NCBI GenBank assembly: GCA_002269645.1
Contig: NIVC01003589.1
Coordinates: forward strand, 25,357-89,356
Origin: Macrostomum lignano
Lineage: Eukaryota
Direction of reading: 5' to 3'
DNA length: 64,000 bases
A model generated the notes under the pieces. It was not told the DNA's origin, did not search any database, and was given only the letters and a program-made list of their open reading frames with translations. Shown here one piece after another: positions 75 to 60,870 of the stretch. How positions within the stretch are numbered: position 1 is the stretch's first letter; every line of letters begins with the position of its first letter. Made by a program: the position numbers and the translations under genes.

Positions 75-353
75 CACCTCAAAATTTGAAACCAGCGGTT
101 TCATTTTCAGAGGTGGCTGTTTGACTAGGAGAGCTTAGAGAGAGCTAGTTGCGAAGAGAGGCACCCAGAGGACAGGCTTGGAATGAGAGGCGGTGGGGCA
201 AGACGGGTGAGAGAAGGGCTGGCCTGAGAGTTGGTCTACCCAGACCCCCCGGCCCTCTCTGGGGGTTGGGAGGCTAGAAAAAGAAAGACACAAGCGTCTT
301 TAGGGGATCACCCACCTCAAAATTTGAAACCAGCGGTTTCATTTTCTGAGGTG
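75..353. repeat. Two copies (75-115, 313-353) of a 41-bp imperfect palindrome CACCTCAAAATTTGAAACC-AGC-GGTTTCATTTTCTGAGGTG
   Basis: Read directly; five more copies at 58863-59592. Confidence 0.9.
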
Positions 354-12522: not shown

Positions 12523-12765
12523 TCACAATTGCTTAATGATTTCTTCAAAGTTATAGTAGCTGTCGTAATCGTTAATGACTACGGCAAGGCCATACTTATG
12601 AAACCAGTGTCTTTGGAGAGCTAGATTAATATTAGGGACATTGATATCAACGCCGGGCCAATATTTTCTCATGTATTCACTGCATTCCTTCTTGAATTGG
12701 TACTTACTCTTGTAATTAGGCTCGTGCGCTTTGTAATAAGAACCTGGGGAGACAACTGGAAACAT
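12523..12765 (-). CDS. 80-aa Tyr-rich ORF of unknown function inside the terminal inverted repeat
   Basis: Same ORF at all five termini (12523, 30877, 38731, 50053, 57360). Confidence 0.75.
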   Translation of the reverse strand: MFPVVSPGSYYKAHEPNYKSKYQFKKECSEYMRKYWPGVDINVPNINLALQRHWFHKYGLAVVINDYDSYYNFEEIIKQL

Positions 12766-13463
12766 TTTTAGAGAAAAATTAGATTTTTTTCAATGGGTAA
12801 GGACCCTGCGCTAATAATTTTAAGTCTTAGGGATCTGATTTCGCATTGCGAATTGAATGCGGGGAGAAGAATGCAGATTATTTTCTGATTGTTTCGAAGA
12901 TGCTATGGGTGGATGTCGGTGTCAATGAGCATAACAGGTGTTAGTGGACATCTGTTATGCTCTGATTCTGTCAGGGATAATAATGGATGGATTTAATAGG
13001 ATTATGTTCGAAGTTTTCGGAGCAAGTGCGACCCCCCTTTATTTCTGATTCTGTCAGGGATAATATGGATGGATTTAGGTGGATTATGGAGGATGTTTTG
13101 TGAGCGAGTGCGACCCCCCTTTTTTCTGATTCTGTCAGGGATAATATGGATGGATTTAGGTGGATTATGGAGGACGTTTTGTGAGCGAGTGCGACCCCCT
13201 TTTTTCTGATTCTGTCAGGGATAATATGGATGGATTTAGGTGGATTATGGAGGACGTTTTGTGAGCGAGTGCGACCCCCCTTTTTTTCTGATTCTGTCAG
13301 GGATAATATGGATGGATTTAATGGGATTATGGAGGACGTTTTGTGAGCGAGTGCGACCCCCCCCCTTTTTTTCTGATTCTGTCAGGGATAATATGGATGG
13401 ATTTAATGGGATTATGGAGGACGTGAAACATTTTGTCCCAGAAGCCCCCTCATGCCTTCGACT
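12523..13463. repeat. Right TIR of copy A with ~80-85-bp tandem subrepeats
   Basis: Unit TCTGATTCTGTCAGGGATAAT starts at about 12961, 13043, 13124, 13204, 13286, 13371; inverted homologues at 38227, 49512, 56911. Confidence 0.9.
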
Positions 13464-16632: not shown

Positions 16633-18162
16633 ATGGGCACTAACGCCACCATCTCTAAAGAAACTGACCCGGTCGCCTCTGGCTCACCGGGATCAGCCGC
16701 TCCGGTAGCTACCACTGGTAGCACCAACGCCCAACCTGGTCCAACCGGGCCAGCTGACGCTGCCGCCGATCACCCTGGCCGCCAGTCTAGCCGACCGCGC
16801 ACGGCCGAGTCTCGACGACAGCGGAACATCCGCCGCAACCGTAAGCGGCAGGAGAAGCGGGCTGCTGCTGCGTCTGAGGAGGGCGGGCAAGCCGCGGTGA
16901 GGCCTTCGGGAGCCACCGCAGCGGGGAGGCCCTCTGGGGAGTCCGGTGGCGCGGCTGGGCCGTCAGGAACCGCCGTGTCCTCGGGCTCTCAGGGGGGCAA
17001 CCCTGCCGGCCTACCGCCTTCCAAAGACAAAGCGGCCCCGCTCAAGACCTCCGAGTCCTACGCGTCCAAGGTCAAGCAGCCGCTGCAACCCGCCGTGATG
17101 ATCCTCGGCGGGGATTTCGACCTGACGCCCGAGCAGCTCGACGTCGCGTGGCGTACCATCGACGAGGGCTTGCTCAATCTAACCCTGGAGGGCGTCTTCG
17201 TGGACATCGTCAAGTCCACCAAGGCGAACGGGTGCATCCTACTGTGGTGCAAATCCGAGGAGAGCACCCAGCTCCTGCGGGATCAGCTGCCCAAGTTCGA
17301 CTGGCACAGCGAACTGGGCCAGCTGACCTTCGCCTTGGAGAGCGAGCGGCCGAAGACCATCCGCCATCGGATTTGGGTCCCGGCCGACAGTGCAATCAAG
17401 TCCGGGGAGCAGCTGCGGCAGCTCCTGCTCAAGCGGCACCCGGATCTCGACGCCAGTGGTCTTGTGTACCACAGCACGAACCGCAAGGGCACGACCGGGG
17501 CCACAGTCATCCTCGGCCTGACGGAGGGATGGGCCAAGCGGCTACCGCACGGCACAAACCTCCACCTTGGTCTCCATCAACTGACCATCCTCCGCTGTGA
17601 GGAGGGCAAGGTGGAGACCAAGAAAGACGGGAAGCGCGCCGCTCCCGGAGCTGGGGCTCATGCCCCGCCGGCCAAGCGGCAGCAGCAACCCGATCCCGAG
17701 CCTAACAAGGCTATTCGCGCTGCTGAGTCCGCCTCGCGCGGACGTAGACCCGCCCGCAGTAGCCGGCGGTCCGGTCTAATCCAGCGCGCACTTGACGAAG
17801 CTCAGTCTCTGAGACTTCACCTCGAGCAGACTCGTGCCGCTCGCAAAAACACTGAAAGCCAGCCGAGGGAACTGGACGACGGCACGGCTCAGCCTTCCAA
17901 CTGGTGGGATTACCACCAGGAGGACGCTGCCGGCCGAGCTCAGACTCCCGACGGCGGGGCGCAAGGCGAAGGCAGCAGCCGTACCCCAATCGCTGGGGAG
18001 GAGGGCGGTGTAGCGCGGCTAGGTGACTCACCTGCCGTGGGCGCCGTGTCCGCCTCCGCGGCGGCTGGGGAGGCGGCTGAGCCTGAGCCAATGGAAATTG
18101 GCGACTCAACTCTCACCGATGAGGCTGAGAATGAGTTGCTTTTCTCCTCCCCTGGACAGTAG
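16633..18162 (+). CDS. LINE ORF1 (gag-like), 509 aa
   Basis: Directly precedes the endonuclease/RT ORF. Disordered ends, YASKVK motif, central folded domain (RIWVP); no CCHC knuckle seen. Confidence 0.82.
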   Translation: MGTNATISKETDPVASGSPGSAAPVATTGSTNAQPGPTGPADAAADHPGRQSSRPRTAESRRQRNIRRNRKRQEKRAAAASEEGGQAAVRPSGATAAGRPSGESGGAAGPSGTAVSSGSQGGNPAGLPPSKDKAAPLKTSESYASKVKQPLQPAVMILGGDFDLTPEQLDVAWRTIDEGLLNLTLEGVFVDIVKSTKANGCILLWCKSEESTQLLRDQLPKFDWHSELGQLTFALESERPKTIRHRIWVPADSAIKSGEQLRQLLLKRHPDLDASGLVYHSTNRKGTTGATVILGLTEGWAKRLPHGTNLHLGLHQLTILRCEEGKVETKKDGKRAAPGAGAHAPPAKRQQQPDPEPNKAIRAAESASRGRRPARSSRRSGLIQRALDEAQSLRLHLEQTRAARKNTESQPRELDDGTAQPSNWWDYHQEDAAGRAQTPDGGAQGEGSSRTPIAGEEGGVARLGDSPAVGAVSASAAAGEAAEPEPMEIGDSTLTDEAENELLFSSPGQ

Positions 18163-18164
18163 AC

Positions 18165-21100
18165 ATGACTGTCTCCCAGGGCATCCACTGCTTGCAGGTC
18201 AACCTGCAGCACAGCATTGCTGCTTTAGTCAACCTCTTGAAGCACACTGACCAATACGTGCCAGGGATTATCCTTATCCAGGAACCTTGGACGCTTAGGG
18301 GCAGCCCCCAACATGTCCCCACCGGCTACCAGTGTTTAACCGCTGGTACCCGGAAGGGAAACCTGGCACCAAGATCCTGCATCATGGTGTCCAGTTCTAT
18401 TAACGCATGGCTCAGATCAGACCTGTCCACCAGGGACATCTGTGTCATCCAGTCTGAAGACATACTCCCTGGGAGGACTACCCTCATCGCCTCGGTTTAC
18501 CTACCGGGCGACGGCGAGATGATCCCAGTAGAGCTTGTCACACTGGTCGAGCTCTGCTCCACCAGAAACTATGAGCTGCTCGTGGCAGGTGACATCAATG
18601 CCCACCACACCCACTGGGGCAGTTCTGATATAAACCAGAGAGGTGAAGACTTCCTGGCTTATATTGCTACTACAACCCTTGAGTTCTGTAACTCGGGTAG
18701 TACCCCTACCTTCAATAACGGACGCCGATCGGAGGTGCTGGATGCCACCCTCGCCACGCCCAGGCTCTTCCGGAGCACTAGGGAGTGGCGGGTGCTTCCT
18801 GAGGCGTCCCTCTCCGATCACAAGTTCATCTCTTTCACGCTGGCCAGCGCCCGTAACGCAGGCCAGCTTTACTGGAAACGGAATGCTAGGAATACCGACT
18901 GGACCGCCTTCAGGCTTGCCCTGGAGGAGACCTATCGTTGCACTAGCACTCCAGTCTCCATCAACACCTGCGAAGAAGCAGATGAATTTGCGGCCGCACT
19001 TACGGACTCGCTCACTGCTGCCTTCGAAGCCTCATGCCCACTAAAGGCATATAAAGGCAAACAGTCGGCCCCATGGTGGAACCCGCAGCTTGGCGACCTC
19101 CGTCGCAGAGCCAAAAGGCTTCACCGCAGGGCCCAAAAAACTAAAAACCCGGCCGATCAAACCGCCTACCTGAACTCTATCCACGAGTTCAAGAGGCAGG
19201 TTAGGAACGCCAAAACCAACAAGTGGCGCGAATACTGTGAGGAACTTGAGGGCTCCCGCCCCACCTCCAGAATCGTTAAAGCCCTCACCCTGGACAAAAT
19301 GTCCAAACTCTCCTCAGTCAAGAGAGCCGACGGCTCGCTCACTGAGAACCCAGGAGAAACACTGGAAGCGATGCTAACAGCGTTTTTCCCGAACGAGCCA
19401 GCCAGGCCCGACCCCCCTGACCACTCAGTGGGCGGACACGTACTGGCTGACTCAATCATCACGGAGGACCGCGTTACTAAAGCTGTCTCCTCCTTCAAAC
19501 CCTTCAAATCCCCAGGACCGGACGGCGTTGTGCCAGCCTTCCTGCGGGAGGCGGTGAAATGCACCGGTTTCCTGCGGAACTTTGTCGGCTTCTGAAAGCT
19601 TGCATTGTGCTCGGCTTTGTTCCGAAATCCTGGACCGAGGCCAAGGTGGTCTTTATCCCCAAGCCTGGCCGACCGGACTACCGGTCCATTAAATCCTTCA
19701 GACCAATTAGCCTCACCTCCACATTTGTGAAGCTGTTAGAGAGACTGGTGCTCTGGCGCCTCCTCTCTGTGGAACTGAAGAACAAGCCGCTCAGTGAGAA
19801 CCAGCATGCCTTTCAGGCAGGCAGGTCCACGGAGAGCGCGCTTCACGTTCTGGTTGACATGCTGGAGAAAGCCGTTCTTGGTAATGGCTACGCTCTCGCT
19901 GTCTTCCTCGACATTGTTGGAGCCTTTGATAGTGTCCTCTTTGAGGCTTTTGACAGAGCTCTACGTGCTAGAGGAACCCACTCGCACCTCACCCGGTGGA
20001 TCATGTATATGATCAGCCACCGTACTGCCACCGCACACCTGTTGGGCCACCAACGGACGGTAACCGTCTGCAAAGGCAGCTCCCAGGGCGGTGTCCTCTC
20101 TCCAGTTCTCTGGAACATGGTCATCGATGAGCTCCTCCAGGACAGCCATCTTGACCCCATCCTCAAGGTCGGTTACGCCGATGATGTCACTGCCGTGGCA
20201 TCCGGACCGTCACCTGAAACCCTTAGAGATCTTTTGCAAAACTTCATTCGCTCTGCTGAACGTTGGGCGGACAGGTGCGGCCTCAGGCTCTCCGAGACCA
20301 AAACTGTCGCGATCATGTTCACCAGCAGGGTAAACTGGCGTATTCGCCCACTAAAGCTTTACGGGGTGGAAATTCCATCCTGCAAGCAAACCAAGTGTCT
20401 CGGCGTTACGCTGGACCACCGGCTGAGCTGGTCCACCCACGTCCAGGCCAAAACCAAAAAAGCCCTCGCGATTCTTGCGCAGCTGCGCAGAGCCGTCGGC
20501 ACCACCTGGGGCCTCACCCCAAAGCGTCTCTGGTGGATCTATACCACAATGGTCCGACCGGCCGTTACTTACGCCGGCCTGGTCTGGACCAGCGCCTTGC
20601 AGATTAAAACCTGCCACGAAGCCCTCAAAAAGGTGCAGGGACGTGCGTGCCGCATGATCCTGAATGCCCCGCTCTCTGCTCCCTTTGACGGCCTCAACGC
20701 CTTTCTCTGCCTCCCGCCTCTGGACATCTTTGTCCGTCGCGAGGCTGCTAAAACCACCCGCCGGCTCATCGAGGCTGGTGTTAGCTTCAAGCCACAAAGA
20801 GCGATGGCGAAGCGCAAGCTCCTGCCGCACTCTGACCTGTGCCTTAAAGTTCTGGAGGAGAGTGGGAGTGCGGCTGTCCTTTCGGACGCTGAACCGCGCT
20901 CCCTCAATCTCTACCAACGCTTCAAGGTCACGATCCCCTCCAGGGAGAACGCCAACGACAGCTGGGCCCCTCAGGAGGTTCACTGCTTCACTGACGGATC
21001 CTCCAAAGACGGTTTATCCGGCTTTGGAGTCTGTATCCTTATCAACGGCCGCGTGATTGCTACTCACGCCCAACACACTGGCAGACTCTCCAGCGTCTTC

Positions 21101-21868
21101 CAGAATGAAGTCCTTGCCATCAGCTCCTGTGCAGCTGAGCTCCACTGCAAGGACTTCAAGGACAGTAGAATCTTCTTCCACTCTGACAGCCAGGCCGCTT
21201 TACAGGCCCTGTGTCACACCACTACGAACTCCCGAACAGCCCGCGACTGTATCGGGCAGCTCAACAAGCTGGCTCGGAGGAACACCGTCCGGCTCACGTG
21301 GATCCCAGGACACGCCGGCTTCAAAGGTAACGAGCTCGCCGACTCCCTCGCTAAGGCGGGCTGTTCCGGCTCGCCCCTTGGCCCCGTGCCCCTGGCCCCC
21401 ATCCCCGCCACAGTCATTAATCGTCAGATTAACGACTGGGCGGACATCCTGCACTTGCGCAGATGGGATGGTATCTCCAACTGCCGCCAATCTCGTGCGG
21501 CAGTGCCCAATCCGTCCCTCAAGCTGCGGAGAATCCTTTTGAACCAAAATCGAAAAGATATCCGCGCTCTCACTATGACCTTCACAGGTCACGGTTGCTT
21601 TGCCAGGCACTGCTTCCTCCGATGTGTTTGCCGGAGTGAACTCTGCCCCTTCTGCAGCCTCGAGAATGAAGATGCCAAGCACTTCGTCTGCTACTGCCCG
21701 GCCTTCAACCGAGACCGGCTCAACCACCTCGGGCCCAACCCGTCCCTGGACGACGTTTGCCGGCCCGAGAACATCCCACGGCTCATCCGGTTCCTCCGGG
21801 CCACCAAGCGAGCCTCCGTCTTCCCCACCGAAGACAACGCTGCAGACAGGACCGGCAGACCTCCCTGA
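18165..21868 (+). pseudogene. LINE ORF2: APE endonuclease, RT, RNase H, zinc knuckle; one frameshift near 19560-19595
   Basis: QVNLQH, IQEPW, GDINAHH, SDHKFI; KSPGPDG, FRPISLTS, QGGVLSP, YADD; FTDGS, SDSQAAL, WIPGH...GNELAD; CPFC...H...C. Confidence 0.95.
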
Positions 21869-21982: not shown

Positions 21983-24504
21983 GGACCTGGTGGCGTTGCA
22001 GATGAGCCTACACGCTCTGCCTTGGATCGTGTTGAGCAGGTCTGCATGGCTTTTGACCTGGGTAGCGCTAACCCAGACAACAGAGGCGTACGTAATGGCA
22101 GGTCTAACTACGGAAGTATAGATCCACCAAAGCCGCTTTGGGGATAGACCCCAAGAAGTGCCAAGTGCTCGTCGGAGCTGGGCCAGGATGGCTGAGGCAC
22201 GCTTGGCTTTTGCTTTCACGTGGAAGGACCAGTTGAGCCGGTGGTCAAGTATGACCCCGAGACATCTGGTCTGATGCGCGAAGGCAATATCTCTCCCGTA
22301 AAGCTGCAGATGTCACATGTTCCAGCGGATTCTGCTCGTGAACATAATGGCAACAGATTTGGGCTCGGAGAGTTCCAGACCGTTGTCATTGGCCCAGGAT
22401 TCTGCTTTGCGGATAAAGCTCTGCATCAGATCCCTGAGCGTGCTGGGGGACGGCCCAGCCACAATGGCAGTGACGTCGTCAGCATACCCGACTTTGAAGA
22501 CGGGATCAGGTCGGGAGTCACCCAGAAGAGCGTCCATGACCAGGTTCCAGAGCGTCGGGGTGAGGACTCCGCCTTGGGGTCCACCCTTACAGACTCTGGC
22601 GGAGGCAGTTTGCCCAAGAAGTTAGGCAGTGACTGTACGGTTGGAGATCATGTACAAGATCCACCGTATGAGGTTAGCGTGAGCTTTGCGATTTTGCAGG
22701 GCCCTCTGAAACGCTTAAAAGATAACGTTGTCGAAGGCGACAACAATGTCGAGAAAAAGAGCCAGGGCGTAACCGTCACCCAGTACCGCCCGTTCAATCT
22801 TCTCGATTATCACATGCAGGACGCTGTCAGTCGACCTCCCGGTACGGAAGGCGTGCTGATTATTGCTGAGAGGCATTGCTGTCAGCTCGCATGAAATCAG
22901 CCGCCAGAGAATAAGCCTCTCAGTGAGATTAAGCATGGCTGACGTTAAGCTAATTGGCCTAAAGGCCTTGATGCTCTGGTAGTCACCCTTCCCAGGTTTG
23001 GGAATGAAGACTACCCGAGCTTCGGTCCAGCACTTGGGAACGTATCCCAGCTGGATAGAAGGCCGCATGAGATTGCGGGTAAGTCTAAGGAACGAGGGTA
23101 TCTTGGCTGCTTCACGAAGGAGAACAGGGTAGATACCATCAGGTCCAGGGATTTGAAGGGCTTGAAGGTTCTGACCGCACGAGCGATTAAGTCTTCAGTG
23201 ATTATGCCCGCCGCTATGGTGGCTCCATCCATTGAGTGGTTGGGTTCCGATCTAGCGGTGGGTACCCTCGGGAAGAATGTGCTGAGCATATGCTGAAGCA
23301 CTTCTTCAGGGTCTTTAGTAAGAGAGCCATCATCTTTTTTGATCATGGCTAATTTGGACATTTTGTCCATTGTAAGGGCCTTGACAAGCCTAGAAGTAGG
23401 TCTATCTTGATCCAATTCATTGCAGAATTGGCGCCATTTACATTCCTTGGCCTTGCGCACTTCAGATTTGAAGTTGCGGTAGGCTTGTCGGAAATTCTCC
23501 ATGTCCTCCGGGTTTCCAGTCTTCATGGCACGGCGGTGAAGGCTTTTGGCCTTCCGACTGAGTTTCCCCAGCTCCAGGTTCCACCACGGCGCCGAGGTCT
23601 TGCCTTTGTAGGCGCGAGCAGGACAAGCCGCTTCGTGGGCTGCAATAATGCAACCTGTCAGCGTCTCAGCCGCTTGGTCCACATCCTTGCAGGTCTCAAT
23701 CGGACGTAAGTCCGTAAGTTCCTGCAGGTGCAGATCAAGGGTAGCCTTATAGGCCGCTCAATCAGTGTTGCGGATGTTACGTCTCCAAGTAATCGAGGAC
23801 TGGGGTTTAGTTTCCGCGATGTTAAAGGCGATAAAGCAGTGGTTAGACAGGCACGGCTCCACAGACCAGACTCTCCGCTCCTCAACTCTGTCAAAGAGTC
23901 TTGGGGTAACGAGTGTGGCGTCAAGGACCTCAGTCCATCTGCCATTGTTAAAGGTAGGAGTGCTACCGCGGTTGCAGAGCATGAGGTTTGTGTTAGAGAT
24001 AAGGGCCAGAAGCTCCTCCCCTCTAGTATTGGTGTCTTTGCTGCCCCAGTGCTTGTGGTGCGCGTTGAGGTCGCCCCCCAAGCACAGCTCAGCGTTCTGG
24101 GACTCGCAGTACTGCGCAAGGCGTAGTAGACTCTCGGGAGCAGGGTCTCTGTCGCCAGGGATGTAAATCGAGGCAACAAGACACGTACGCGGAGAGAGAT
24201 GATTAGATTGGATGACACAGAGGTCTCCATCAGAGATATCAGTCCTCAGCAAAGCCTGGAGATGGCTAGCAGCGAGGATAGCCGCTCTAGGGCGGCTGTT
24301 CCCCGGGCCACACACATAAAAGTCAGAGTAGCCAGAGGGAATGTTGAGCAACTTACCGTTGCGCATCCAATGTTCCTGGATCAGGATGAGGCCTGGCCTG
24401 TACAGCTCAGCAATCTTCATCAGATTTACTGACACAGATACGCAATGCTGTAGATTTATTTGAGGACAGAATGTCGCTCCTTTGGCAGCGTGGAGCTTAG
24501 TCAT
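21983..24504 (-). pseudogene. Outer LOA ORF2 5' part (APE and RT), multiple frameshifts
   Basis: QINLQH, GGDLNAHH, FRPISLTS, GYADD spread over ORFs 23758, 23011, 22715, 22313, 21887. Confidence 0.9.
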
Positions 24505-29555: not shown

Positions 29556-30152
29556 ATGGCTTCTAGTTCGCCTATGGATGTCGATTGGCGTATAAAGCTG
29601 TCTGGCGAAACAGCGAAACGGAGACTATGCGAGGTCTTATCTGAGACTTTAGCAGAAATCAAGGATCCAGTTAGAGCTGCGGAGAAAAGACAAAAGATCG
29701 CAGAATTTTTCGGGCTTAACGAAGAGTCGCTGCAAATGGAAGTCCTCACTCTAACGCGGCGGCAGATGAAGGAGGCGAGCGATCGCAAGGCGGCGCTTGA
29801 TGCAAAGCGGCGAGATAAGCGCAAAGAAGACTTCAAACAGAAGCTCATCGCCTCACGAATTCCCCAAGCGGATGTTGGGAACCCTGCCGGTGATGAAGGC
29901 GGTGATGTGGTAGAGCGTCTGCAGTGCGCTCTGCTTCGTCTGAAAAGGTCGCAGAAGAGTGGTCTGCATCATGCGCTCCAATGTGGAAAAATCTTGTTGA
30001 AATTTAAAGCCAGTAACAAAAAATACGCTAGAAAGGCACGAAAACAGCATTATGACTATCTTCTTGCTCGAGTTAGCCTCAAGGTTTCATCAGCAAATCT
30101 TTATATGAAGTTTTTTAAGCTGAAAAGTGGAACGCTAATATGTCAATATTAG
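29556..30152 (+). CDS. Variable-slot protein, copy B allele (198 aa, C-terminus possibly truncated)
   Basis: Open frame between PLA2 and TIR; ALQCGKILLKFK...SSANLYMKFFKL. Confidence 0.6.
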   Translation: MASSSPMDVDWRIKLSGETAKRRLCEVLSETLAEIKDPVRAAEKRQKIAEFFGLNEESLQMEVLTLTRRQMKEASDRKAALDAKRRDKRKEDFKQKLIASRIPQADVGNPAGDEGGDVVERLQCALLRLKRSQKSGLHHALQCGKILLKFKASNKKYARKARKQHYDYLLARVSLKVSSANLYMKFFKLKSGTLICQY

Positions 30153-30206: not shown

Positions 30207-30480
30207 CTCTAGCCTGCTTCGGATTGGTCAGAAAAAGCCAACGCGTTGGCTTTTTTTCCTTTTGCAAGAGCAAACGAAAGATTTTTTATAGAAAGCGCTA
30301 GCCTGCTTCGGTTTGGTCAGAAAAAGCCAACGCGTTGGCATTTTTCCTATTGCAGAACACAAGAGAGAAATAGTTGTAAATGGTATAGTAATAATTTTTT
30401 TGTAAAATAATTTTGTAGTATACGGACGCTCTAGCTTGTTTTCGATTAGCCAGAAAAGGCTAACGCGTTAACATTTTTCC
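30207..30480. repeat. Three dispersed ~55-bp repeats with palindromic core AAAAAGCCAACGCGTTGGCTTTTT
   Basis: Perfect 24-bp palindrome at 30232-30255; variants at 30321-30345 and 30454-30478. Confidence 0.88.
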
Positions 30481-43117: not shown

Positions 43118-45539
43118 CCCTTATATGCCGGGTGGCTAGCAGAGCTGACCATAGCCATAGAATAGAAGGTGACGAGAAAAAAAATTGGTAGTCTATGGCC
43201 AGTGAGGCGCAGAATTGCAGCTCCTTTCCTGCCGAACATGTTCAGCTGAGCTGACCATGGAATAAATAGCGCACTCACTCAGTCTGTAGCACTCTGTAGC
43301 GACCACTAGAGCAACTTTCATGTACTAACAATGGCACAGAAGAAAGATGCAGTTTATTGTTGAATTAATTTCGAACTATAAAGTTAAAGGGAAAGTTAAA
43401 GTTAAAGTTCAAGCAAAAGAAGATATTTGTCCAAAAGCAACAAAAAATTTATGATTTTGAGACGCAACTACATGTACGCTCGTATAGTAGCATATAATAA
43501 TACAAGGAACAATATTGTGGTAGAGTGCCGCAGTTGGACATTTAATTATTTTTGTCTTAACATAAAGGTAAAAAATTAATAGTCAATGCCGAATACAAAC
43601 GCGAATTATATAGTACGGCTGGTGAAAGGAGTTCTTTAATTCAGTGATTCACATGCCACCGTTCAAAGCAGGGACTTGGGCACAGTCCAGGTGCATTCGG
43701 ACACGCACTGCAGCAGAACACGGTGCGCTTCGCAGTGCCGTTGCGGTAGCACACGCGGCATTGCTTCACCGGCCTCGGGCACGATTCCCTCGGAGGCAGC
43801 TTTGATGGAAAGTGCTGCTGAGCTGCGGCCGCCGCTGGTTGCTTAGCTGCCGTTCGCTGTCTTCCTGGTCCCGTGGAGTCAACCAGTAGGGTGATACAGC
43901 TCTCCAGGAATTTGAAGAACTGCAGCCGGCCACCGTGCTTTGAGTATACAACCCATGCATTGTGTACAAGCAGCAGACAGAGATGAAACCCCAACTTATG
44001 AAACCACTTGTAGGTTTTGCGGCAGCTGTCGTACGGTTTCAGCATGGCATCGAGTCGGTCAACGCCTCCCATGCAGCGGTTGTACAGCAGGTTCGAGGCG
44101 CTTTTCTGCACTTGCACAGCTTCACCATTCTTGCGAATTCGGTTCGTCGCTACTTTCTGAGCTGAGCCGTGGGTGTCGATCATGAAGAATGTTTTCAAGC
44201 CGCTTTCCTTGCGCTCCAGGATTTTCATGGCCAGCACTGGCAGCTTCCTCATGAAAACTACGTCATTTAACGGCACCTGCTGACTGCGCAATGCCAACGG
44301 CACTCCACGGTCGGCTCGAACAGTTGCTGTCAGCAGTGTGCTGCGTTCGTACAGAAAAGTCGCAAGCCGTACTGAGGCAAACCACTTGTCGACGAAAAGG
44401 TGATAGCCGAAACCGAGCAGGTCCTTGCAAAGGTGCACTACGATTTTCTCGCTTAGAGACAGCTGGTCACAACCGAGGTCGTCGCCAAAATGAGAGTTCT
44501 CTTCAGCAGTCGAATGTACTAGAAAGTTATACAGGTAGCCAGATACAGACTCACAGGCGCAGTACATTTTAATTCCAACTCTGGCTCTCTTCGATGGGAT
44601 GTACTGCCTAAACTGAAGGCGCCCCTTGTACAGAATCAGGGACTCGTCGACGCTGACCTGCTGCTCCGGCTGGTACACGTTCGCGCAGAGCTGCTGAGCC
44701 AGACGGAGCAGCGGCCGAATCTTGTGCAGTGGGTCGTTCGAGGCGGGTGCTCGTGAATCGTAGAAACGAAGGAAGGCCAGCAGCTGCTTGAATCGGTCAC
44801 GGGTCAAGCCATTGGGCGATTGAAAAAACGGAGTACTGTGAATGACACTGGTGCTCCAGTAATCATGCAGTTCCGGCTTCCGTGAGATGCCCATGAACAG
44901 GTACATACCCAACAGCTTGGATATCTCACTGCGGTTTGTGTCCTTCCATGACTTCAGCAAGCTCGAAACATCTTCTCCATCATGTGTCGCCTGCTCATAC
45001 TCAGCCCAAGCTTTTGCGTTTGTCCACTCCACGATCTTATCCAGCAGCTCATCGGTTAGTAGAAAATATTGGATGTCTTCACGGTCTTCGCGAAGGACAA
45101 TGCTGGGGTTTACACCCGAAATTCCAGTGAAACTGGGGCCGTCTTCAACAATGTCTTCGCCTGGCTCCACAAACTGCCAATCGTCTTCTACTTCGCTGAT
45201 AGTGACCGACTCAGACGACTCGGAGTTCTCCGCTATTCCAGCGTCACTTTCGGAGTCGGAAGTCAACAGAATATCCATATTTGGATTGATTTGAATTGCA
45301 TGAATAGAATTGTACAGAATTTGGCACAGCCCTTAATATACTAAAACCGGGCTGTCTATGGCCAGTCTTGTACAGTTTTGATAAGCGTGTGTGCAACCCA
45401 TTCCAAATGTACATTCTCCTTCAACCCTAGATTAGACCAGCGATGGCTGGCTTATCGGCAGGAGTGGCAGTGCAATTCAGTTCACTGAAAACTTGAAATA
45501 GTCTATGGTCAGCTCTGCTGACCATGCCGGCAGGAACGG
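43118..45539 (-). mobile_element. piggyBac-family DNA transposon
   Basis: TTAA at 43114-43117 followed by CCCTT; imperfect TIR (GCTAGCAGAGCTGACCATAG versus CTATGGTCAGCTCTGCTGACC) ending ...CAGGAACGG at 45539. Confidence 0.88.
43641..45278 (-). CDS. piggyBac transposase, 545 aa, intact
   Basis: DDD triad VSVDES / FVDKWFAS / MGGVDRLD; C-terminal Cys-rich domain CRVC...CCSAC...LCPSPCF..WH. Confidence 0.95.
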   Translation of the reverse strand: MDILLTSDSESDAGIAENSESSESVTISEVEDDWQFVEPGEDIVEDGPSFTGISGVNPSIVLREDREDIQYFLLTDELLDKIVEWTNAKAWAEYEQATHDGEDVSSLLKSWKDTNRSEISKLLGMYLFMGISRKPELHDYWSTSVIHSTPFFQSPNGLTRDRFKQLLAFLRFYDSRAPASNDPLHKIRPLLRLAQQLCANVYQPEQQVSVDESLILYKGRLQFRQYIPSKRARVGIKMYCACESVSGYLYNFLVHSTAEENSHFGDDLGCDQLSLSEKIVVHLCKDLLGFGYHLFVDKWFASVRLATFLYERSTLLTATVRADRGVPLALRSQQVPLNDVVFMRKLPVLAMKILERKESGLKTFFMIDTHGSAQKVATNRIRKNGEAVQVQKSASNLLYNRCMGGVDRLDAMLKPYDSCRKTYKWFHKLGFHLCLLLVHNAWVVYSKHGGRLQFFKFLESCITLLVDSTGPGRQRTAAKQPAAAAAQQHFPSKLPPRESCPRPVKQCRVCYRNGTAKRTVFCCSACPNAPGLCPSPCFERWHVNH

Positions 45540-50691: not shown

Positions 50692-51080
50692 AAAAATGGC
50701 CCCACTGGTAGCCATTCTAAGCGTTCTCATTGGTTGATAAGATTATACTAAAGAGAGAGTGGAAATGACTTGTTACTAAAAATAACTCAAGACAGATATT
50801 GCGATCGTGTCAATTTAAAATTGGCTGGCCCCACTGGTAGCCATTCTAAGCGTTCTCATTGGTTGATAAGATTATACTAAAGAGAGAGTGGAAATGACTT
50901 GTTACTAAAAATAACTCAAGACTGCTAATACGGTCGTATTTAAAATTGGCTGGCCCCACTGGTAGCCATTCTAAGCGTTCTCATTGGTTGATAAGATTAT
51001 ACTAAAGAGAGAGTGGAAATGACTTGTTACTAAAAATAACTCAAGACTGATATTGCGATCGTCTCAATTTAAAATTGGCT
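50692..51080. repeat. Three tandem ~125-128-bp repeats
   Basis: GGCCCCACTGGTAGCCATTCTAAGCG...AATAACTCAAGAC units start near 50692, 50816, 50941. Confidence 0.92.
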
Positions 51081-51099: not shown

Positions 51100-51738
51100 T
51101 CACTGTCTCCACATCGCCGCATCCGCCTGGTAGCGAACCTCGTCCCGAATGAGCTTCATATTTTCCAGAACGAAGCTAACTGGTACGGCGCAGCGTTGTA
51201 AGGCCGGAAATTCTGTCAATAAGTCGTACACTCTCAACTTCTTGTCCAAAGTCTGCCTCGATACTTGTAGATTAAGCCGTCGAATTATATTCCGAACCGA
51301 CTTTAGTGTACGTTTGAGCCGGTGAATGATGGAGCCGATGTAAAATGACACAATTAATGTGCGCTTATCATAAAAATTCTCATGCTGAAATAATTCCACC
51401 AGCATGTTCTGTACAGTGGGTAGAACAGTGGGTAGATGACGAAAGTTCAACGCGTGCATACTTTCCTCGATAACTGATAGCTCCCTTGTTGGCGCTTGAA
51501 CTTCGACTCCATACGAAGCACGAAGGCGCTGGAAAACAGCAGCTACTCGTGCTTCGTAGGTGGAAATATCGCGTTGGGTTTGTCCTTCCATGCGAGCCAA
51601 ATCGTGCTGTATTTCCTCTTCTTTGAAATTTTCAAACAATTGTTGGAGTCCATCTCTCTGCTCTAAAGGTGTTAAATTAATCAAATCGTTCACAAATGCG
51701 TTAAGTCGAGCGGTTCTAACTGTAATTCTTTCAGCCAT
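51100..51738 (-). CDS. Variable-slot protein, copy E allele (212 aa, intact)
   Basis: Open frame; FYIGSIIHRLK...YDLLTEFPALQRCAV. Confidence 0.72.
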   Translation of the reverse strand: MAERITVRTARLNAFVNDLINLTPLEQRDGLQQLFENFKEEEIQHDLARMEGQTQRDISTYEARVAAVFQRLRASYGVEVQAPTRELSVIEESMHALNFRHLPTVLPTVQNMLVELFQHENFYDKRTLIVSFYIGSIIHRLKRTLKSVRNIIRRLNLQVSRQTLDKKLRVYDLLTEFPALQRCAVPVSFVLENMKLIRDEVRYQADAAMWRQ

Positions 51739-54557: not shown

Positions 54558-56910
54558 ATGCCAAAAGCTAATCCAGCAAGAGATTTAGTCAACAAATATT
54601 TTTCAAAAGGCGTCTCATTTCAAGACAAAAGTAATTCACTAAGAGAAGCATGCAAACAAAAGTTCAACACCGACCCTGGTCACCTGGGAAGCTATGAAAA
54701 ACAGTTGGAAATCATCAATCAATTAGAATCAAACCAGTATGCGCCTATACAAAATCCTGCAAAGGAACACCAAGAGAGGAGTCGCAACTTAGTTAACAAA
54801 TATGAAACTCTCACTGGTGAAAAAGCAAAGTACCCACAAAATAAGCAGGAACAAGAGAAATTAGAGCAATTAATCCATTTAAAAGAGTCGGAGCTTGCCA
54901 CTGAAGAGATTAATTTTGCACAGACGAAGTTTACAGAACATTACATAGAGTACACAATCCCAATTAACGGCACCAACGGTACCACCGCAAACATCTACGA
55001 CTATAAAGACAGCATCCAATCAGTTGTTGATCACACACTCAAAACACGCAAGACCTTTAAACTACAGATATCATTCAAGATTGCGTTTTATATGCCTGCA
55101 AAACCCACTGAGCATCTCGAGTATTACATGACAACAAAGGCAAAGCCATTCACCCCAACAGACACACTGGATCCTTTCCTTCAAGATGTCAATAAGAAAA
55201 TTGAAGCGTTTACATCCAGAGGTTCCGGATGGGTCGTGGGAGGGATTCAAAGAGCGACTGTCAGGGTCATGAAATATGACCCACTTAAAGCCTCCTCTTA
55301 TATAGAGCTCCCGCATAAGCTAGCCGGTAAAAAAGCTTGCATAAATGTTAAAAATAAAGACAATTGCTGTGCTCTATGGGCAGTTCTTTCTGCACTTTTT
55401 AGTGTCCCTTTACCACCCCGAAAGAACCTCAAATTATCAAAATTATTTTAACTACTATCTCATTGAATGCGAAAAGAAGGGAATCAGGTTTGACAAAGGA
55501 GGCTTGGCAATCTCTCAGATCCCAAAGCTAGAAGAAGTGTTTAATAACAAAATTAGAATCACAGTCTTTGAGTGGAGTGAGAAAACTGAGAAAGTTCAAC
55601 CGGTCAGATGTAGCAAAGACGTTTTAGATCCCGAGGGGAAAAGGCGGACTGAAGTGGATCTTCTAGTGATTGGTAATTTACTAGAGGAGGCTCACTATGT
55701 TTGGATTAAAGATCTTTCAAGACTCATACACAAGCAGTTGAATAATCATCACGAGGCTGTTGCCATCTGCCGCTTGTGCCTTAAGCATTACAGTGGACCT
55801 GAACGCTTTGAAAAACTAGCAGAGCATGAATTATCATGCGAGGATCACCCGACAAACTGCTCTCTTCCTTCAGCTGAAGAGAAGTATCTCCGGTTTAAGA
55901 ACTATCACAAGATGGAGAAGCTCCCATTTGTTGTATATGCTGATTTCGAATGCTCAATCGTGCCAGAAACTCAAAAACAAACTCCAACTCAAAAACAAAC
56001 TCCAACTCAAAAACAAACTCAAACTCAAAAACATATCCCCAATTCAGTAGCATATGCCTTTATTAATACAAAAGGACTTGTTGAGTATAATTATTTCTTT
56101 GGAGAGCAGTGTGTGGAGCAGTTTATTGCCAGAATGTTAGAGTTGCAAAAATTGATTAGCACCCTTCAACCTGTTCCAATAATGATGACTGAGGAGGATG
56201 AAAGCAATTTCCTATCAGCAACTCATTGCCACATCTGCAGGAAACATTTAACTTGCACTAATATTAAAAACCCCACCGTTAGGGACCACTGCCACTTTAC
56301 TGGGAAATTTAGAGGTGCAGCGCATAACACCTGTAATCTAAAGCTAAAATCGAACATTCATGATCTAACGATATTTTGTCACAACGCAAAGAACTATGAC
56401 ATGCATTTAATAGTTGAAAAAATCGGCATGATTCCAGACATACACCTTGATTGCATCGCAGAGAACAAGGAGAAGTTTAAGTGTGTTGATATTAAACAGG
56501 ATAATTCGGGTACAGGTAAAATAAGACTGAAGGATTCATATCAATTTCTAGCTGCCAGTCTAGACGAACTAAGCAAGAATCTAAAAGATGAACAATGTAC
56601 ATATACAAAGATGTTTGCAAGTAAAATTAACAACACTGATGAATCATTTAAACTCCTGAGAACCAAAGGCTTCTACCCCTATGAAAATATTACTGGGTAT
56701 CACGTATTTGAAGAAGGTTTACCACCACAGGAGAAGTTCTTTTCAAAGCTAACAGACTCTGGAATCTCTGACAAAGACTATGAGCACGCGAAGCATGTCT
56801 ATAATTACTTTAATTGTCAAAACTTCTTCCAGTATCACCTGCTTTACCTCTTCACAGATGTGTTTCTGCTGGCTGATGTGTTTGAAACCTTCAGATGCAC
56901 CTGGTACACA
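54558..56910 (+). pseudogene. pPolB: pPolB 5' two-thirds, copy E, one frameshift near 55400, cut by copy F
   Basis: ORFs 54519-55451 and 55345-57183; PolB stops at TWYT then AGTAGAAGG. Confidence 0.94.
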
Positions 56911-57599
56911 AGTAGAAGGCATGAGGGGGCTTCTGGGACAAAATTTTTCACCTCCTCCATAATCCACCTAAATCCATCCATATTATCCCTGACAGAATCA
57001 GAAAAAAAGGGGGGTCGCACTCGCTCACAAAACGTCCTCCATAATCCCATTAAATCCATCCATATTATCCCCGACAGAATCATGAAAAAGTGGAGGGGTC
57101 GCACTTGCTCCGAAAACTTCGAACATAATCGTATTAAATCCATCCATATTATCCCTGACAGAATCAGAGCAGGTGTCCACTAACACCTGTTATGTTCACT
57201 GACACTGACATAATCCACTAACATCTTCGAAACAATAAGAAAATAATCTGAATTCTTCTCCCCACATTCAATTTGCAACGTGCTACCAGATCCCTAAGAC
57301 TTTAAATTATCAGCGCAGGGTCCTTACCCTTTGAAAAAAAATAATAAATTCTCAATAAAATGTTTCCAGTTGTCTCTCCAGGTTCTTATTATACTCAGCC
57401 TAATCCATTGTACAAATCCAAGTACCAATGCAAACTAGAATGCAGCGAGTACATGAGAAAATATTGGCCCGATGTTGATATCAATGCCCCTAATATTAAT
57501 CTAGCTCTTCAAAGACACTGGTTTCATAAGTACGGAGTAACATATGTAAAAGATTACGACAGCTATTATAACTTTGCAGAAATCATTAGACAATTGTAG
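56911..57599. repeat. Left TIR of copy F
   Basis: Inverted homology to 12523-13463. Confidence 0.88.
57360..57599 (+). CDS. TIR 80-aa ORF, copy F
   Basis: MFPVVSPGSYYTQPNPLYKSKYQC...YNFAEIIRQL. Confidence 0.75.
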   Translation: MFPVVSPGSYYTQPNPLYKSKYQCKLECSEYMRKYWPDVDINAPNINLALQRHWFHKYGVTYVKDYDSYYNFAEIIRQL

Positions 57600-58148
57600 A
57601 ATGTCGTTACGATACGCTTTAAGACTTTAAGACTGCAATAATAGATATTTTTACGCATGGTATTTTGCTGTGTGGCGGGTGGGTGATAGCGGAATGGGTA
57701 TGGCAGCTGTTTCTGGTCATAGCGCGAGCGGCGTGTGCAGCATAGAGAAAAAAGCTTTTGCCCAGCTCAACCCTAACTAGCTCAGAAGATCCCTTGCCTA
57801 GCTTCAGAAACGCCCATTTAGTTCCTTGTTTAAACCCCCAGCCTTTTCAACCCCCAGCTCTTTCAGCAGTCTTCCTAGATCTTTCCCAGGCAACCCCAAT
57901 CAACCATTAATAGAAAATACTGGCTATAAGTAGAAAATCTGCGGGTTTCCCTTCTAGAATTCGAATTCTAGAAAATTCTAGAACAAAAAGAGAATCCGTG
58001 GATTCCCGAGCCCACACCAATGGTATATATACAGCCGATTCACACCGCCCCTCGCCTCACCCTGCCTGCCCCGCCTCGCCTCACCCCGCCTCAACTCGCT
58101 GAGCCAGCAACTTCTTATTTTTGACTAGCTTAATCTCTGGATCTTGCC

Positions 58149-58862: not shown

Positions 58863-59592
58863 AACCTCAAATTTTGAAACCACTGGTTTCATTTTCTGAG
58901 GTGGGTGTTTGATTAAAATAGCAAATTTGCTTGAGACAGTGTAGACAAATGTTTCTGCTGGAAGCAGTGCAGAACTCAGATCACCCACCTCAAAATTTGA
59001 AACCAACGGTTTCATTTTCTGAGGTGGGTGTTTGACTAGGAGAGCGTAGAAGAAAACGGAGGGATCACCCAGAAGGTTGTACCTTGTAGAGTGTAGACGT
59101 AAGTTCTAAAAATAAAACCCATACAATGTGTTGGGAGAGCGTAGAAGAGATCACCCACCTCAAAATTTGAAACCAGTGGTTTCATTTTCTGAGGTGGCTG
59201 TTTGACTAAGCTCGGGAGAGCGTAGAGCTAGTTGCGGAGGCTAGAGAAGCAGTGCAGAACTCAGATCACCCACCTCAAAATTTGAAACCAGCGGTTTCAT
59301 TTTCTGAGGTGGCGCGGCGCCCCTGTGCAAAGAGAGCCCAGTGCTCTGGCCCGGACTGCTGGGGAAGGGAAAGGGAGAGGAGCTCAAGGGGAAGGAGATT
59401 TCAGTACAACGGGAGACTCAAAATTCCCAGGCGCCCCTCTACCCCCCAGCGCGAGATCGCTAGTGTTATGTTTGACTACAAATAGAATGAGCTCGGGAGA
59501 GCGTAGAGCTAGTTGCGGAGGCTAGAGAAGCAGTGCAGAACTCAGATCACCCACTCAAAATTTGAAACCAGCGGTTTCATTTTCTGAGGTGG
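58863..59592. repeat. Five copies of the 41-bp hairpin repeat with modular spacers
   Basis: Copies near 58863, 58986, 59156, 59271, 59551; loops ACT, AAC, AGT, AGC, AGC. Confidence 0.92.
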
Positions 59593-59762
59593 CTGTTTGA
59601 CTAGGAGAGCGTAGAGCTAGTTGCGAAGAGAGAGAGGCACCCAGAGGACAGGCTTGGAATGAGAGGCGGTAGGGCAAGACGGGTGAGAGAAGGGCTGGAG
59701 AAAAAGCAGGCGCTCACCCAGAAACCTTTTATATTGTTGCATAGTTTAGACCCTGCACATAC

Positions 59763-60064
59763 GGGTTATAGCCTAGTGGTTAGGGCGTCGGACTCACTAC
59801 TTGAATGAAGGTTGAGGGTTCGATTCCCGATCCCACTGCAACAATCTGTGTCTTTGAGCAAGGCACTTTACTCCGCATTGCTTCAGTTCACCCAGCTGTA
59901 AAATGGGTGCCAGCATTAGCTGGGTAATTGAGGGTGTGTGTGGCGACCCCCAGTCCTTGGACTGAACAGCCGTACGCAGCCTTAGATGCCGCGCAATAGC
60001 TGCGGCTGAGCTGTCGATTGCACATCTGCCATTGGGCAGTTGTAATCAATTATTATTATTATTT
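59763..60064 (+). mobile_element. CORE-like SINE, same position as in copy A
   Basis: A and B boxes, CORE-like block, (ATT)n tail, same flanks as 497-802. Confidence 0.8.
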
Positions 60065-60389: not shown

Positions 60390-60870
60390 CAAGCGCCTCT
60401 CTCAACCCCAGCTCTTTCAGCAGCTTCCTAATACCTCGTTTGGAGCACACAAATAAACCCCGCTCCGAGCACTCCGCCACACCCGCCCTCTCTCCCAAAC
60501 ACCCACCTTCGCCTTGAACCCCAAACCCAATCTTGTCTTACTAAAAATAACAGCTTTAACTAGCTTCGAGCGATCGACTCACGAAATCCGCTTGAAGCCC
60601 TATATTGTCTAGTCTCTTAAGCATTTCTTTGTCCCAGCGATTCTTCTCCTCAGGAAAATCTCTATATTTAACATCGTGCCACATGCAGACAGAGTCTAGC
60701 TCATTCACAGGCTCATGCCCAGGATTTGGGTTGTTGTTTCCATCCAGCTGTATTTCAAGAGGATTCAAAGGCCCGCAATATTTATAGCCGGGAAGTGTCC
60801 AGCCTTTGTTTGGATGAGGAAGCTTTTCTATCAGTCCATGTGAATCTATTTTACCACCAGAGCGTTGCAT
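60390..60870 (-). pseudogene. PLA2X-like gene, copy F
   Basis: GYKYCGP, WHDVKY; indels downstream. Confidence 0.85.

Follow-up and report, generated by a model that had tools for sequence, protein, structure and literature searches.

A palindrome array 3' of a small helical gene in Polintons of Macrostomum lignano: candidate protein-binding sites with host-like DNA in the spacers

Among the closest described layouts to the locus presented here is that of the F plasmid, in which sopC, made up of 12 repeats that are each 43 bp long and include a 16-bp inverted repeat, adjoins sopB (excerpts of PMC3177203). According to the excerpts available to us, SopB-sopC and the helix-turn-helix ParB-parS systems resemble the Polinton array in joining a small helical gene to an adjacent array of inverted repeats (PMC3177203, PMC5002424), and further in having centres more variable than the arms, terminal units that are more diverged, and a variable repeat number. 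Unlike ParB-parS, however, the array belongs to a eukaryotic element, neither a ParB N-terminal domain nor a ParA was found with it, the fold match is weak, and its irregular spacers contain DNA that appears to have been captured. Baculovirus homologous regions (hrs) are similar in that they comprise three to eight conserved repeats built on an imperfect palindrome in an invertebrate DNA virus, but they occur in several regions per genome and are demonstrated origins and enhancers (PMC4535591, in part). In contrast, the Polinton array occurs once per element, is tied to one gene family and is missing from some related elements. The analogy with hrs drawn in a preliminary description of this DNA thus holds for the cluster of imperfect-palindrome repeats, and fails for their number, there being one array per element rather than several.

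The spacers have parallels of their own. Module reshuffling and uptake of foreign enhancer-active DNA are known from the SV40 enhancer trap and from rearranged polyomavirus control regions (PMC5410105, in part); the SV40 trap is a laboratory selection, whereas the Polinton array carries three natural host upstream pieces, putative enhancers, between its own palindromes. Templated insertions at breaks, as portrayed in excerpts of PMC11724301 and PMC9457163, copy and paste distant DNA with microhomology at the junctions and with donors biased to active or fragile regions. These are known from yeast and B cells, while the Polinton case is inherited in a mobile element and has three of three host donors upstream of genes. 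The element itself has in common with Polintons and adintoviruses the rve integrase, the pX-like core, PolB, adenain, the A32-like ATPase and terminal inverted repeats (PMC8502044, PMC11161782, both in part). In the text available to us, the former does not use the words hairpin or palindrom-, nor the latter HTH or DNA-binding, and neither feature appears in the titles and abstract openings of the Polinton literature within reach of our search, which most subscription papers are not. Unnamed conserved proteins in the supplements of PMC8502044 may include the gene family discussed here. Analogues of the layout are known already.

Comparing sequences, we favour a reading to which we give a little better than even chances: the 41-bp units are likely double-stranded DNA sites for the product of the element's own 207-aa gene, they likely make up a regulatory array, and some spacers include what are likely copies of host promoter-region DNA.

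The array within its element

The window, a stretch of 64,000 nucleotides (contig NIVC01003589.1, positions 25,357 to 89,356), is a nest of Polinton copies in which Pfam identifies rve integrase, pX-like core, PolB, endonuclease VII, adenain and A32-like ATPase; genes for integrase, PolB, protease and ATPase lie within terminal inverted repeats, as expected of a Polinton or adintovirus. From 56911 onward the element is ordered as heat-shock-like promoter, 207-aa gene, array, SINE-like repeat and integrase region. Its left terminal repeat (56911..57599, plus strand; inverted copy at 12525-13463) begins with AGTAG and includes 82-bp tandem repeats at 56953-57168. Two 18-bp direct repeats on the plus strand border the cassette, on the left at 57852..57869 and on the right, ahead of the integrase region, at 60406..60423. 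Between them lie an inverted GAA/TTC run (57952..57983, plus strand), which we take to be like a heat-shock element, with a TATA-like box at 58024; the 207-aa gene, P0001 (58149..58772, plus strand); the array; and a tRNA-headed, high-copy SINE-like repeat with approximate bounds 59763..60060 (plus strand), which shows very high contig depth and has an Rfam tRNA match in a sister copy at 497-570. At 56910/56911 the element sits in the polymerase gene of a different copy of its own family; the element at L033 has this junction too. LINE-like elements (endonuclease, reverse transcriptase, RNase H) and a DDE_Tnp_1_7 transposase are also present in the window, at 16633-21868, 23758-24504 and 43641-45278.

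The main array consists of five imperfect 41-bp palindromes between 58863 and 59591, each with the architecture 7-5-7-3-7-5-7 and with no strand assigned. The units occupy 58863..58903 (loop ACT), 58986..59026 (AAC), 59156..59196 (AGT), 59271..59311 (AGC) and 59552..59591 (AGC, 40 nt, one C short). Two further units, at 75..115 and 313..353, bring the window to seven copies; they belong to a second element copy (L031) with eight units in total, most of which precede the window start and the last of which is the unit at 313. In the arms, 16 of 19 positions pair in the units at 313, 58986, 59156 and 59271, 15 in that at 75 and 14 in that at 58863, and the units fold as DNA with z-scores of -3.8 to -6.3, far beyond shuffles. 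The preliminary description of seven hairpin copies inside a Polinton is therefore borne out by the positions and the Pfam-defined element, as is its consensus pairing of 16 of 19, with individual copies at 14 to 16. Its variable loop is only partly free: ACT, AAC, AGT and AGC are indeed present, but 99 units show only these and AAT, with A as the first base in all 99. Spacers within arrays measure 26-263 bp, so that the spacing is irregular. Other identities that were considered and dropped are a Helitron end (no fixed terminal motif), an integron attC site (no cassette genes) and a miRNA precursor (3-nt loop). Resemblance to parS and sopC words was judged to be no more than chance.

Across the genome, a 17-bp core of the unit has 94 exact matches, compared with 4 for the reversed control. 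Ninety-one of these fall in 17 array loci and one in a rearranged piece of the same element, whereas the remaining two, which lack the outer arms, lie in an unrelated reading frame. As 92 of the 94 matches to the core fall in copies of this element, the unit is not a MITE dispersed outside Polintons. All 16 array loci that were fetched belong to the same Polinton family and have one array per element in the same slot, 3' of the same 207-aa gene in 15; the sixteenth starts at a contig edge. Unbroken arrays have 4-8 units, and across copies whole units have been doubled or lost at the repeats. The 11 element copies examined share their start and have 9 distinct flanks, a sample of few and related copies. 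L033 and the window copy occupy the same insertion site with 6 and 5 units, respectively, a difference that reflects either a unit lost once the element was in place or a collapsed assembly.

Four related elements (L140-L142, L144) are without the whole cassette, their left border joining at about 60400-60480, which argues against an essential origin, one role the earlier description had entertained. Protein-primed replication from the termini needs no inner origin. Other copies, with a backbone about 85-95% identical, carry alternative cassettes with genes of subfamilies D, F, G and H.

A gene family with its own palindromes

A structure model of P0001 built from 34 sequences is all helical (pLDDT 89), and the protein is the predicted binder of the sites. 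P0001 has 62 matches in the genome. A profile search found 27 unnamed relatives elsewhere, of which 10 were checked and none had a name, while a word-based search gave 221 candidates and no significant homologue. No Pfam family was found at E of 0.1 or below, the PDB sequence search returned only coiled-coil noise, a Foldseek search with the model gave no match at E of 0.001 or below, and no related locus was found in viral or metagenome contigs. A homodimer prediction, run without an alignment, scored 0.01.

In eight of the ten P0001 subfamilies a palindrome array of the subfamily's own begins no more than about 120 nt past the stop codon, a pattern established in one genome that backs the earlier proposal of a link between the array and the gene upstream. 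The site of subfamily A, to which P0001 belongs, is TGAAACC-N3-GGTTTCA; that of B is a related unit with A-like outer arms, in which parts of the unit are kept at 38% protein identity, and A and B units have similar outer pairing including a G-T pair. Subfamilies C and D share the site ATACTGCAGTAT in 47-bp units. The site of F is GCCAACGCGTTGGC, that of F2 is TCTAAC-N2/3-GTTAGA, that of G2 is TATTGG-N5-CCAATA, and that of G, the weakest of the set, is the AT-rich CAATTT-N-AAATTG. These sibling palindromes are short and were located by repeat search. The C, D and F sites have no loop, and in G2 and F2, as in A, the arms are kept and the centre varies. By BLAST, C and D proteins are 57% identical, and all other pairs of subfamilies are below 40% or undetected. 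Although they lie in different backbones, C and D have one site in common. This C/D site has 131 genome matches against 4 for its control, and 97 of the 100 matches listed are directly 3' of a P0001 homologue.

We kept 70 of 86 gene rows (at least 75% identity to the representative, 3' end present). Sixty-four of them have their own motif 3' of the gene, 3 of these duplicating a place already counted; 5 have none, and 1, from subfamily H, has only other subfamilies' motifs, at a distance of 540-700 nt. The seven motifs were upstream of the gene in none of the 86 rows. In two A rows without an array the sequence breaks off at the gene end, neither of the two G3 copies has an array, and one G copy is also without one. 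Within a subfamily, the linkage of gene and array amounts to descent, and the same loci served to define the motifs; the weight of the rule comes from eight different sites in the same position and from the sharing of a site by C and D across backbones. The window holds two remote homologues in the same cassette slot as P0001: one of subfamily F (29556..30152, plus strand, profile E 8.5e-7), followed by palindromes at 30238 and 30327, and one of subfamily G (51100..51738, minus strand), followed by three 125-bp repeats (50697-51080).

Several features of the surrounding cassettes may be recorded alongside. A 43-bp hairpin lies 758 bp 3' of the B gene (L057/L058) and, reversed, about 1270 bp before the end of the C gene match (L061-L065). 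Apparently the same SINE-like repeat as in the window is found about 830 nt 3' of an F gene (L122), behind the F-type array. The heat-shock-like promoter (57952-58029) is common to the A gene and the remote H gene (L148, L149) at 88%; heat-shock-like triplets precede A, F2_L115 and H and are absent before the other 12 of 15 ORFs.

Given the plasmid parallels, protein and array could instead be a partition or tethering module of the SopB-sopC type, holding a free linear genome on host chromatin, with proximity to open promoters explaining the captures. Besides the adjoining sopC and sopB (PMC3177203, in part), this would fit the 47-48-bp tandem units of C, D and G2, the absence of the site from the promoter of the gene, and the ParB-type rows in both fold searches: Spo0J, KorB and ParB, and Raf1 besides, can be aligned with the greater part of the C-domain (about 95 residues for the first three). 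The Z-scores of these alignments are about 5-6, which is background level; the matches to 1vz0 (Z 5.8, rmsd 4.3 over 95), 1r71 (Z 5.4, rmsd 4.2 over 96) and 6s6h (Z 5.1, rmsd 5.3 over 93) are equalled by unrelated chains. Further, P0001 is without the ParB N-terminal domain by Pfam, ParB families are absent among the NCBIfam and PHROG rows listed for 34 family members, and the 42 window ORFs scanned, out of 71 listed, include no ParA and only an A32-like ATPase. The irregular spacing in subfamily A also speaks against such a module, and for the number of sites compared, the 5/7 agreement between the A arm and that of sopC does not exceed chance. We consider partition an unlikely function.

Variation within the units

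Variation was counted within slots in 79 indel-free units of 87; the decayed copy L044 was set aside, as were 5 units that are recombinant or broken and a further 8 with an indel of one base. The variable slot-sites number 1/255 in the paired arm and 0/48 in the unpaired arm, or 1/303 in the whole arm, and 5/24 in the loop. Substitutions are thus not spread evenly over stem and loop; an even spread is the outcome that would have told against the preliminary description. Among the comparators, 16/276 sites vary in multi-copy modules and 66/552 in unique spacer, and within the 207-aa gene 30/401 vary at codon positions 1 and 2 and 31/201 at position 3. The arms are less variable than the comparators, with Fisher p values of 3e-12, 7e-5 and 7e-7 in three contrasts, which overstate independence because the element copies are related. 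With L044 included and indels uncorrected, the counts are 7/303 for the arm and 75/552 for unique spacer.

It is the sequence of the arms that is maintained, not their pairing. The check for compensatory changes in the stem returned none in 99 units, overall variation being low, and three arm mismatches are fixed across the same units. Since unpaired arm bases are invariant and compensatory change is absent, binding sites fit better than a hairpin. A role as single-stranded hairpins or cruciforms, be it as a 3' UTR structure, a small-RNA precursor or a replication signal, is not supported by these counts; the earlier proposal had included a cruciform. The stable folds would agree with it, as would the outer pairing with a G-T pair shared by A and B. 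So would a CpG across the loop/arm boundary: of 72 units (L044 excluded), 18 have TG there and none has CA, as if the loop C were exposed; selection on the arm fits this skew as well. However, the C, D and F sites are loopless, no Rfam family is matched by the unit, and the cassette is missing from four related elements. We regard a hairpin function as quite improbable. At the second base 3' of the right arm (59028 and equivalent flanks), a single slot can show G, C or T, and a piece resembling the upstream region of a host TRIM-NHL-like gene is inserted alongside.

Could the uniformity of the arms be neutral, the product of a break-prone repeat homogenised by recombination that acquired filler DNA by accident? 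Units have been gained and lost at the repeats, as the range of 4-8 in unbroken arrays and the one unit by which the window copy falls short of L033 attest; modules are also less variable than unique DNA, and repair is known to leave captured filler DNA with microhomology (PMC11724301, in part). Conversion between units may indeed contribute, as the lowered variability of the modules suggests. Nevertheless, the loop allele is bound to its slot (AAC in 12 of 12 slot-2 units counted), and because slot-specific loops persist, conversion between units is insufficient to explain the uniformity of the arms. The arms are less variable than both the modules and codon positions 1 and 2, subfamily B, at 38% protein identity, still has parts of the unit, and arrays recur in eight subfamilies. 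A purely neutral origin seems to us about as improbable as a hairpin function.

The arms could also be sites for a host protein. GAAANNGAAA, presumably an IRF core, occurs with two fitting bases once per unit on the minus strand, 5 times in the array and 0 times in 16 kb of backbone, and the genome has IRF domains (16 matches above the Pfam cut-off), so that the element might respond to immune signalling through IRF-binding elements. This motif was noticed post hoc, accounts for the right arm only, and is missing from the sites of sibling subfamilies; we hold an IRF role to be very unlikely.

Host-like DNA in the spacers and what it may mean

The preliminary description had regarded the spacers as shuffled modules. 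Modules are present, but pieces of other DNA of 60-186 bp are found as well. Six unique array pieces were searched for outside donors, and four had one. Three long spacers have matches of about 90% identity in the DNA immediately 5' of host TRIM-NHL-like, P450 and DUF5524 genes, and each runs in the opposite orientation to the array strand. A 150-bp piece with sharp ends (59319..59468, minus strand) is 91-92% identical to the proximal upstream region of a Filamin+NHL (TRIM-NHL-like) gene at two duplicate host loci (L126, L127). It stops 47 bp short of the TATA-like box of this Pfam-identified gene, and one low-depth contig has the first exon joined to the base before the ATG context with a GT-AG pair. 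A 186-bp piece has its matches at three loci, 330-515 bp 5' of a P450 ATG; it is present at full length in 13 units and absent from the window copy. A 116-bp piece likewise has three matching loci, some 290-410 bp 5' of a DUF5524 ATG, and is found in full in the second copy (155..268, minus strand, 91% to L135) and as a 72-bp part at 59627..59698 (minus strand, 90% to L135). The P450 and DUF5524 gene starts were inferred from reading frames. The fourth donor is another Polinton: a 60-bp piece (59073..59132, plus strand) is 93-97% identical to the start of a sister Polinton cassette (L148, L149), just inside the terminal repeat and upstream of the promoter. Searches with the slot-1 spacer (14 matches) and the slot-7 tail (8 matches) yielded no outside donor, and that with the G2 spacer (10 matches) no host donor. 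Control searches with two non-array pieces gave 43 and 17 matches, and the 9 inspected were all backbone of this Polinton.

Distances are 0-0.02 between donors, 0.02-0.03 between arrays and 0.07-0.09 between array and donor, and the donor loci are without array DNA. This pattern makes a host-to-element direction likely, and the pieces were likely copied from the host into the element in one event each. The chance of three of three donors being upstream is at most 5e-4, assuming that upstream kilobases make up 4-8% of the genome, and with the caveat that low-copy conserved donors are the easiest to detect. Insertions have occurred at various points, within the right flank, within a module or beside the left flank, and the junctions share up to 12 nt with array modules. 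Since junctions are variable and show microhomology, the array is not CRISPR-like, and a store into which an element enzyme deliberately inserts host DNA at repeats is most improbable: palindromic repeats do alternate with unique pieces, four of the six tested have outside donors and the element encodes an integrase, but insert lengths range over 60-186 bp, different copies have their inserts in common, none of those seen being new and specific to one copy, and cas genes are absent among the 42 window ORFs scanned. The captured pieces are as variable as neutral DNA, and in the window copy two of them are missing or truncated, so they may persist neutrally. The P450-derived piece (L032:5030-5215, minus strand) contains a 13-bp inverted repeat whose array version is perfect while the donor version deviates at one base, and 8 of 8 fixed differences from its donor are C>T or G>A.

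We return to the reading of the units as binding sites within a regulatory array. P0001 would bind as a dimer, with one subunit per half-site, and the array would serve as an operator or enhancer between the gene with the heat-shock-type promoter and the integrase-core genes. The helical model and the alignments with Spo0J, KorB and ParB chains would suit such a binder, though these alignments are at background level. Full sites occur in the array alone, and none was found in the promoter of the 207-aa gene itself, which is unlike a usual autorepressor. Breaks or template switches at the repeats would be patched, via microhomology, from open promoter DNA; capture would then be a by-product of breakage or template switching, with some patches kept. 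A bolder version, which we put forward as a rather doubtful speculation from these sequences, is that of a natural enhancer trap, in which a ParB/KorB-like protein would bind the array, dock at open host promoters and sample regulatory DNA that retunes the element, while at least eight co-diverged specificities would keep co-resident Polintons separate.

The eight candidate protein-site pairs offer a direct, small-scale system in which to approach the regulation of animal Polintons. The element may borrow host gene switches through the captured pieces. If host promoter-region DNA did enter a viral control region three times, this would represent natural enhancer capture, or else a record of the position of the element in the nucleus.
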